This document shows positions 23,314 to 23,453 of a stretch of DNA of 64,000 bases, piece after piece. The position numbers were made by a program, and so were the translations under genes. The number at the start of each line of letters is the position of its first letter. Position 1 is the first letter of the stretch. The stretch lies in sequence record PZ495249.1; one strand, written 5' to 3'. The notes under the pieces were generated by a model. The model searched no databases and was not told the origin of the DNA. It saw only the letters and a list, made by a program, of their open reading frames with translations. Origin of the DNA: a phage.

Positions 23314-23453
23314 TGGCACCAGGAGGAGGAGTCGAACACTCCTAATCAGGTCATGACTCCTGACTATCTCAAACCAAACACTGTTGTGTCGGCTATTGCA
23401 TAACAGCGAGCGCTCACTCCTATGCAGACCTTCACCAGTGTCGAGATCCTGGT
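23314..23453 (-). tRNA. atypical 140-nt tRNA-like element
   Basis: CCA-like TGG; perfect 7-bp acceptor pairing (23318-24 ACCAGGA with 23447-53 TCCTGGT); T-loop-like GGAGTCGAACACTCC; internal 5-bp helix AGGTC/GACCT enclosing about 74 nt. Confidence 0.25.

Follow-up and report, generated by a model that had tools for sequence, protein, structure and literature searches.

A 140-nt tRNA-like RNA gene in the tRNA array of a phi92-like phage has the layout of T4 species 1 RNA

The tRNA cluster of bacteriophage T4 ends in genes for two small stable RNAs, rnaC (species 1 RNA, 139 nt) and rnaD (species 2, 119 nt; record NC_000866). Both RNAs are cut from a primary transcript common to the tRNAs; species 1 is its final gene, and transcription stops after it (PMC2330249). 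No function has been assigned since the 1970s to the small stable RNAs encoded alongside the T4 tRNAs (PMC3014915, PMC12685909), and the role of species 1 is reported as unknown (PMC3014915, PMC9697503, PMC12685909). Phage tRNA arrays themselves are now viewed as counter-measures against host defenses that target tRNAs (PMC10264068). Here we describe E1, a genuine, unannotated, and structured tRNA-like RNA gene in the tRNA array of a different phage subfamily.

E1 was found in a stretch of 64,000 nt of phage DNA (PZ495249.1; hereafter, the window) from a phi92-like myovirus. The nearest records are the Klebsiella phages FKP3, phi1_175008, and FBKp34 (Stephanstirmvirinae), at ∼82% identity across the tRNA array. 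The array holds 25 tRNA genes, all on the minus strand (18450–23838), of which ARAGORN called 23 and Rfam supplied the other two, tRNA-Cys(GCA) (22676–22746) and tRNA-Arg(UCU) (21779–21853), both also on the minus strand. E1 sits in the gap between tRNA-Leu(UAA) (23460–23550) and tRNA-His (23006–23083). An earlier note, made from the letters of the sequence, had proposed a 140-nt tRNA-like element here, with perfect acceptor complementarity, an encoded CCA, a T-loop-like sequence, and an internal helix around an insert of ∼74 nt. The element is real, and all of the listed motifs are in place on the plus strand: TGG at 23314–23316, ACCAGGA at 23318–23324, GGAGTCGAACACTCC at 23328–23342, and TCCTGGT at 23447–23453. 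On the minus strand, E1 starts 6 nt past the CCA of tRNA-Leu and reads 5'-ACCAGGA, 122 nt, UCCUGGU-G-CCA-3', so TGG does correspond to an encoded CCA that follows a G.

We scanned for a TTCRA T-loop, a 5-bp T stem, and a 7-bp acceptor stem in fixed tRNA register, which recovered the known tRNAs plus E1, in which positions 1 through 72 span 136 nt. The UUCGA T-loop of E1 lies exactly 12 nt before the 3' acceptor strand, the canonical tRNA register, which bears out the proposed T-loop. All seven acceptor pairs are Watson–Crick, as claimed; we estimate a chance of ∼0.01 for such an acceptor to accompany an orphan T arm within a 165-nt search range. The spacing and 3' flank of E1 are those of a normal tRNA gene: AAC directly follows its CCA, a flank shared with tRNA-Leu(UAA), and the scan shows NCCA at the end of the other tRNAs it lists, with a short A-rich spacer behind it.

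The minus strand of E1 is predicted to be a structured RNA, with a folding energy of −58.8 kcal/mol (z = −4.82) that none of 200 shuffled sequences equaled. The plus strand folds at −43.9 kcal/mol (z = −1.9), a difference to be expected from several G-U pairs. The minimum free energy (MFE) structure and the RNAalifold consensus of five E1 copies agree on the anatomy listed in Table 1. The long arm has ∼30 bp in five helical segments, an apical GCGC loop (23410–23413), and a 6-nt bulge, UGGUUU (23371–23376, nt 78–83), close to its base. Applied to the window sequence by itself, the energy model favors a different T hairpin, GGAGU-GUUCG-ACUCC with a 5-nt loop, by 3.1 kcal/mol over the canonical T arm. 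Because the U needed for that pairing is a C in two of the five copies, we favor on sequence grounds a canonical T-loop with one bulged pyrimidine in the stem.

Table 1. Coordinates of E1, its parts, and neighboring features in the window
Feature	Position	Strand	Basis
E1, whole tRNA-like RNA gene, 140 nt (5' A at 23453, 3' CCA at 23316–23314)	23314..23453	-	sequence, fold, conservation
E1 acceptor stem, 5' strand, ACCAGGA, nt 1–7	23447..23453	-	seven Watson–Crick pairs with 23318–23324; pairing in 5/5 copies
E1 long irregular arm, nt 8–88 (81 nt)	23366..23446	-	MFE and RNAalifold consensus
E1 second hairpin, nt 89–110, 7-bp stem, 8-nt loop AGUCAUGA (23351–23358)	23344..23365	-	pair probabilities 0.81–1.0
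E1 T arm, nt 111–129, (A)GGAG-Y-G / CCUCC, T-loop UUCGAYU, bulged pyrimidine at 23338	23325..23343	-	register scan, RNAalifold consensus
E1 acceptor stem, 3' strand, UCCUGGU, nt 130–136	23318..23324	-	sequence, register scan, pairing
E1 discriminator G73 and encoded CCA	23314..23317	-	sequence
tRNA-Leu(UAA), immediately upstream of E1	23460..23550	-	ARAGORN and Rfam; 6-nt spacer to E1
tRNA(CAU), first gene of presumed three-gene unit	23761..23838	-	ARAGORN and Rfam
Promoter-like site TTGACA-N12-TGTTAAGGT upstream of tRNA(CAU) (putative promoter)	23848..23877	-	read from alignment
Weak hairpin CUCGCAAUAUGUGUUCUUACGAG followed by U-rich AAUAUAUUUU (possible 3' end of unit)	23287..23309	-	conservation

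The layout of E1 is that of T4 species 1 RNA. We folded T4 rnaC and derived an RNAalifold consensus for five Tevenvirinae homologs, in which 18 pairs have compensatory changes. The order of elements (acceptor strand, long irregular arm, hairpin, T arm, acceptor strand) is identical in the two RNAs. Both genes lie in the tRNA cluster of a phage, on the strand that encodes the tRNAs and a few nucleotides past the preceding gene, and their lengths differ by one nucleotide (139 nt for rnaC, 140 nt for E1). Across the two RNAs the long hairpin measures ∼70–80 nt, the second hairpin 22–26 nt, and the T arm carries a UUCGA loop. T4 species 1 RNA serves as a substrate for RNase III in vitro. The two differ in detail. 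The 7-bp acceptor of rnaC contains two U-U mismatches, which are Watson–Crick in Yersinia phage fHe-Yen9-01, whereas that of E1 has none; rnaC has an 8-nt linker before a 10-bp hairpin, and E1 has no linkers; the T arm of rnaC is canonical, and the T stem of E1 is bulged; and CCA is encoded by E1 but not by rnaC. Their phages are also different (Straboviridae for rnaC, Stephanstirmvirinae for E1). Both terminal loops of E1 include self-complementary stretches (UCAUGA within the 8-nt hairpin loop at 23351–23358, and GCGC within the palindrome GAGCGCUC at 23410–23413) and could allow loop–loop dimerization, a post hoc observation with nothing like it in rnaC.

We searched for homology between E1 and rnaC with covariance models in both directions, filters off, and detected none in sequence or profile. 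A model of the five Tevenvirinae rnaC sequences (R2), run over the array with filters off, matched ordinary tRNAs only and not E1. A model of the E1 copies (R1) gave T4 rnaC 9.6 bits, below its scores for T4 tRNA-Leu and tRNA-Gly; the same model gave 166–176 bits to the E1 copies in the searched loci, all of which were training sequences. E1 is thus built like species 1 RNA and is not classifiable as its homolog, and the parallel could reflect convergence or a coincidence of design.

A perfect acceptor stem, a T-loop, and a CCA are also what one would expect of a tRNA gene that bears an insert or intron, with the ∼74-nt segment either removed or tolerated and a working tRNA as the product, and the earlier note had read the element as bearing an insert. 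The related phage KP2025 has an annotated tRNA-Arg(TCT) of 432 nt (locus 25–456) that overlaps a DUF2828 CDS and could be an intron-containing tRNA or an annotation artifact; if the former, interrupted tRNA genes may occur in this group. For E1, however, this reading is largely refuted, and we consider it very improbable. No D stem can be drawn from the MFE structure, the consensus, or the pair probabilities, and there is no anticodon loop of 7 nt with U33, the sole candidate being the 8-nt loop of the second hairpin on its 7-bp stem. ARAGORN did not call E1 in standard or intron mode (-i). Rfam, with its tRNA and intron families included, gave no match to E1 at the gathering score over the whole window or at E ≤ 10 over 18000–24500. 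We also removed every contiguous segment of 20–104 nt from native E1 and from a version without the T-stem bulge, and ARAGORN called none of the resulting 10,115 variants a tRNA. The AGGTC/GACCT helix that was to enclose the insert has a pairing probability of 0.00, and even the most favorable fold that includes it lies 12 kcal/mol above the MFE. The internal part of ∼120 nt is wholly taken up by two simple arms, and the supposed insert is itself under structural selection, as described below.

Compared with canonical tRNAs (RF00005, class II included), E1 shares the acceptor stem, the T stem-loop, the discriminator, and the CCA in exact register, apart from a single additional pyrimidine that bulges from the T stem. 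The hairpin that immediately precedes its T arm resembles the long variable arm of class II tRNAs, but E1 is without both the D arm and the 5-bp/7-nt anticodon arm of a canonical tRNA. Since an 81-nt arm and a hairpin with an 8-nt loop take the place of these two arms, the molecule as modeled cannot decode codons. Inspected by eye, the acceptor end (A1-U72, C2-G71, C3-G70, G73) does not carry the known identity of alanine (no G3-U70), histidine (no G-1), or serine or tryptophan (no G2-C71), and it fits no E. coli acceptor-stem identity set of which we are aware. As it lies outside the acceptor-only identity sets known to us, aminoacylation of E1 appears unlikely.

Further classes were considered. 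The tRNA-like domain of tmRNA has the topology of E1 (5' acceptor strand, large internal domain, T arm, 3' acceptor strand, CCA), and tmRNA is processed by RNase P. We rejected this assignment, as E1 has C3-G70 and not G3-U70, contains neither a tag reading frame nor pseudoknots, and was negative in Rfam and in the tmRNA search of ARAGORN, which returned nothing in the window. In bacterial Y RNA-like molecules (YrlA), the 5' and 3' ends form the Ro-binding stem and the tRNA-like module is internal; the ends of E1 form an acceptor stem with GCCA, and Rfam gave no match. Membership in an intron class, such as one with a group I core, was likewise rejected on the lack of any Rfam intron match at E ≤ 10.

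We found five copies of E1, 91%–99% identical, in the window, three Klebsiella phages, and one IMG/VR contig. In blastn searches against phages, E1 was present in four records, namely FKP3 and two of phi1_175008 (98.7%) and FBKp34 (91.8%). Pattern scans of IMG/VR and a NAMPT-anchored locus search returned a single contig (IMGVR_UViG_3300030441_000047), and there were no hits in JGI metagenomes (two patterns), GTDB genomes, plasmids, or E. coli genomes. E1 is far better conserved than its surroundings. Between the window and FKP3, identity is 98.6% for E1, 73% for tRNA-Leu(UAA), 69% for tRNA(CAU), and 63% for the DNA downstream of E1; the corresponding values for FBKp34 are 91.4%, 71%, 67%, and 44%, and for the IMG/VR contig E1 is 94.3% and the downstream DNA 62% identical. 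tRNA-Leu(UAA) precedes E1 in all five genomes, with one extra tRNA in between in the IMG/VR contig (locus 116–190, minus strand), an odd gene that ARAGORN reports as tRNA-??? with a 2-base anticodon, corresponding to a 6-nt anticodon loop.

The pattern of substitutions follows the predicted structure. Seventeen columns vary among the five copies; by our count 11 of these are in predicted pairs, and 10 of the 11 keep pairing. Among the paired changes, three are double and compensatory (C-G to U-A twice and A-U to G-C once), five preserve pairing through a wobble, and one, an A-C, breaks it; 99.6% of the cells are paired. No pairing is predicted for the remaining six variable columns, among them the T-stem bulge and T-loop position 59; both variable sites of the T arm (nt 116 and nt 123) are unpaired in the canonical model. 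The acceptor complementarity is kept in all copies, with A1-U72 changed to G-U in one and G6-C67 to G-U in another. The informative changes are limited to the acceptor stem and the long arm, which holds all three compensatory and most of the wobble-preserving changes. About nt 78–116, including the second hairpin, are invariant in all five copies, so that covariation says nothing for or against the pairs of the hairpin and the T arm, and with just five closely related copies the covariation support is thin. Judged from these sequences, the bottom arms of E1 appear to be under purifying selection.

These data also bear on whether the region is simply part of a protein-coding gene. One phi1_175008 record annotates a "hypothetical protein" CDS across it, and two ORFs in the window overlap E1, one of 94 aa (23260..23544, minus strand) and one of 165 aa (plus strand). 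Both ORFs cross tRNA-Leu, however, and the 165-aa ORF also crosses tRNA(CAU); the start codon of the 94-aa ORF is GTG; no feature is annotated at E1 in the other records; substitutions track RNA pairing; and the frame is broken in relatives that lack E1. We regard a coding origin as extremely improbable.

Three related phages (KP2025, KP13-16, and KP13-26) have no E1. In KP2025 and KP13-16, tRNA-Leu runs from ...ACCAAAC straight into TCTCGCAAT, which in the window is split by AAUACCAGGA...GGUGCCAAAC. Presence and absence thus differ by a clean indel between CCAAAC repeats, and E1 behaves as a cassette; CCAAAC ends are typical of the tRNA genes in this array.

We infer that tRNA(CAU), tRNA-Leu(UAA), and E1 form one three-gene unit. 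The promoter-like motif upstream of tRNA(CAU), GTGTTGACA...TGTTAAAGT, is also present in FKP3 and KP13-26 in the alignment, and the next promoter-like site past E1 is at 23263–23236. The weak hairpin 3' of E1 is kept in the window, FKP3, KP2025, KP13-16, and the IMG/VR contig; a terminator scan did not call it.

We think it probable, going by sequence, fold, and conservation, that E1 encodes a small tRNA-like RNA that is stable and non-decoding, is processed as a tRNA, and acts in trans. E1 would be cotranscribed with tRNA(CAU) and tRNA-Leu(UAA) from the putative sigma70-like promoter. RNase P would then cut at its 5' end, 6 nt past the CCA of tRNA-Leu; we propose this cleavage on the grounds that E1 has, in its acceptor stem, T arm, and GCCA tail, the top half of a canonical tRNA. 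In tRNAs, this half is what RNase P, the 3'-end and CCA enzymes, and the enzymes that modify the T-loop recognize. The 3' end of E1 would be trimmed to the encoded CCA and could be repaired there by host tRNA 3'-end enzymes. Pfam searches of 10 ORFs near the array found no enzyme of tRNA repair or processing, only a lectin/glucanase-like domain and domains of DNA, nucleotide, and sugar-nucleotide metabolism. The top half of E1 would provide for processing, presumably for stability, and for access to tRNA-binding proteins, and the bottom arms would carry the function in trans, for which the likeliest candidate is the binding or titration of a host or phage factor that recognizes tRNAs. A search of the 64-kb window for antisense targets or duplicated pieces of E1 returned chance-level matches only (best E = 0.15).

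The main rival to a trans-acting RNA is that E1 is a cis-acting module or the relic of a tRNA gene, whose top half is retained only as an RNase P site, to release tRNA-Leu at its 3' end and to cap the transcript, and whose bottom arms do nothing in trans. In its favor, E1 closes a short unit, 6 nt past tRNA-Leu, and in E. coli an RNase P cut at a downstream tRNA helps to free the 3' end of the tRNA upstream; moreover, the three related phages above manage without E1. Against this, the bottom half is the best conserved part of E1 (∼nt 78–116 being invariant), the pairing of the long arm is maintained through compensatory changes, and E1 has diverged far less than the tRNA-Leu it would serve. 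On balance, we find the cis-acting or relic reading unlikely and prefer an RNA that acts in trans.

E1 extends an old class, that of the small stable RNAs in phage tRNA clusters, although its own distribution is narrow. That an unrelated sequence has the same size, topology, and setting in a different phage subfamily suggests that the design has been selected for and is not an oddity of T4. A bolder proposal, which we offer as speculation and rate as doubtful, is that E1 and species 1 RNA are independent inventions of one device, a "top-half tRNA mimic" that engages host factors which recognize tRNAs. Such a mimic might act as a decoy for, or an inhibitor of, defense nucleases that target tRNAs; alternatively, it might soak up or recruit the enzymes that process and modify tRNAs, with the bottom arms conferring specificity. 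If this were true, the 50-yr-old question of what species 1 RNA does could be approached from a second sequence, unrelated to the first. E1 is tractable for comparison, given natural phages with and without it and an invariant core at ∼nt 78–116. Standard tRNA finders and phage annotation pipelines overlook genes of this type or label them as hypothetical proteins.

The array contains a second unusual element on the minus strand, E2 (122 nt; 20971–21096), to which the earlier note had ascribed the architecture of E1. This holds for part of the molecule. The two share strand, array, a canonical top half, a pyrimidine (U in E2) that bulges from the 5' side of the T stem, an extra structured arm, and the fact that tRNA finders miss them; they differ in D arm, arm layout, and CCA. 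E2 is a full cloverleaf with an extended anticodon arm, whereas E1 has no D arm and two bottom arms, so they have a top half in common and not one architecture. The acceptor of E2 is CGCGAGG/CCUCGCG and its D arm GUCU/GGAC with the loop AAGGGCGAU; a 7-bp stem ends not in an anticodon loop but in a 55-nt extension, followed by a 4-nt variable loop and a T arm (GAG-U-GG/CCCUC), and the gene ends in AGCA instead of NCCA, with no encoded CCA. Its fold has z = −1.85. When the T-stem bulge of E2 was removed, many deletions yielded variants that ARAGORN called tRNAs with arbitrary anticodons, which never happened for E1; E2 thus contains an intact cloverleaf scaffold that is absent from E1. E2 is genuine; it is conserved in the IMG/VR contig with changes that preserve pairs, including wobble pairs, and gave no blastn match in the phage collection. 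E2 is also placed at 5793–5914 of a second locus, and in FKP3 its position is held by a different unannotated tRNA-like gene (locus ∼3511–3592).

Other unusual tRNA-like genes were noted in related phages. In Justusliebigvirus phages of E. coli, tRNA-Leu(UAA) is followed directly by a conserved cloverleaf gene of 105–108 nt, with sites in E. coli phage BME3 (locus 6947–7051), Erwinia phage Hena1 (601–708), and Salmonella phage UTK0002 (386–500). Its loop CAUCAAA (UCA anticodon, A33) is invariant, its D arm combines a 6-bp stem with a 4-nt loop, and its variable arm is long, all of them tRNA-Sec-like traits. The gene occurs in 35 phage records, with compensatory changes in seven pairs, and is annotated as tRNA-sup(tca) in Hena1 and unannotated elsewhere. 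We rejected E1 as a diverged copy of it, as the two have no alignable similarity and the 105-nt gene is a true cloverleaf. KP13-26 has an unannotated 98-nt tRNA-like gene (locus 10051–10148, minus strand) with a long variable arm, an encoded ACCA, and the anticodon arm UGGAG-CUUAUAC-CUCCA (UAU, Ile-type), located behind a GTGTTGACA...TGTTAGAGT promoter motif. Just past the E1 copy of FBKp34 (locus ∼6109–6170, minus strand) is a tRNA-like stub of ∼58 nt, GGUCUGU...UUGGG-UUCAAGU-CCCAA-ACAGACC, which consists of an acceptor stem and a T arm with just ∼27 nt between.

Finally, the window itself has further features of note. There is no tRNA-Trp among its detected array genes, and one is present in FBKp34. 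The gene at 22066–22140 (minus strand) encodes a tRNA with a CUA anticodon, labeled Pyl by ARAGORN and of the amber-suppressor type, which is kept in related phages and annotated as tRNA-Sup-CTA in KP2025. Directly 3' of this suppressor tRNA and within the array lies a 56-aa ORF (21881–22051, minus strand) with a strong AGGAGG ribosome-binding site and a Cys-rich product (CLCSLC); a weak Rfam match to RT-3 (20.9 bits, under the gathering score) overlaps it.
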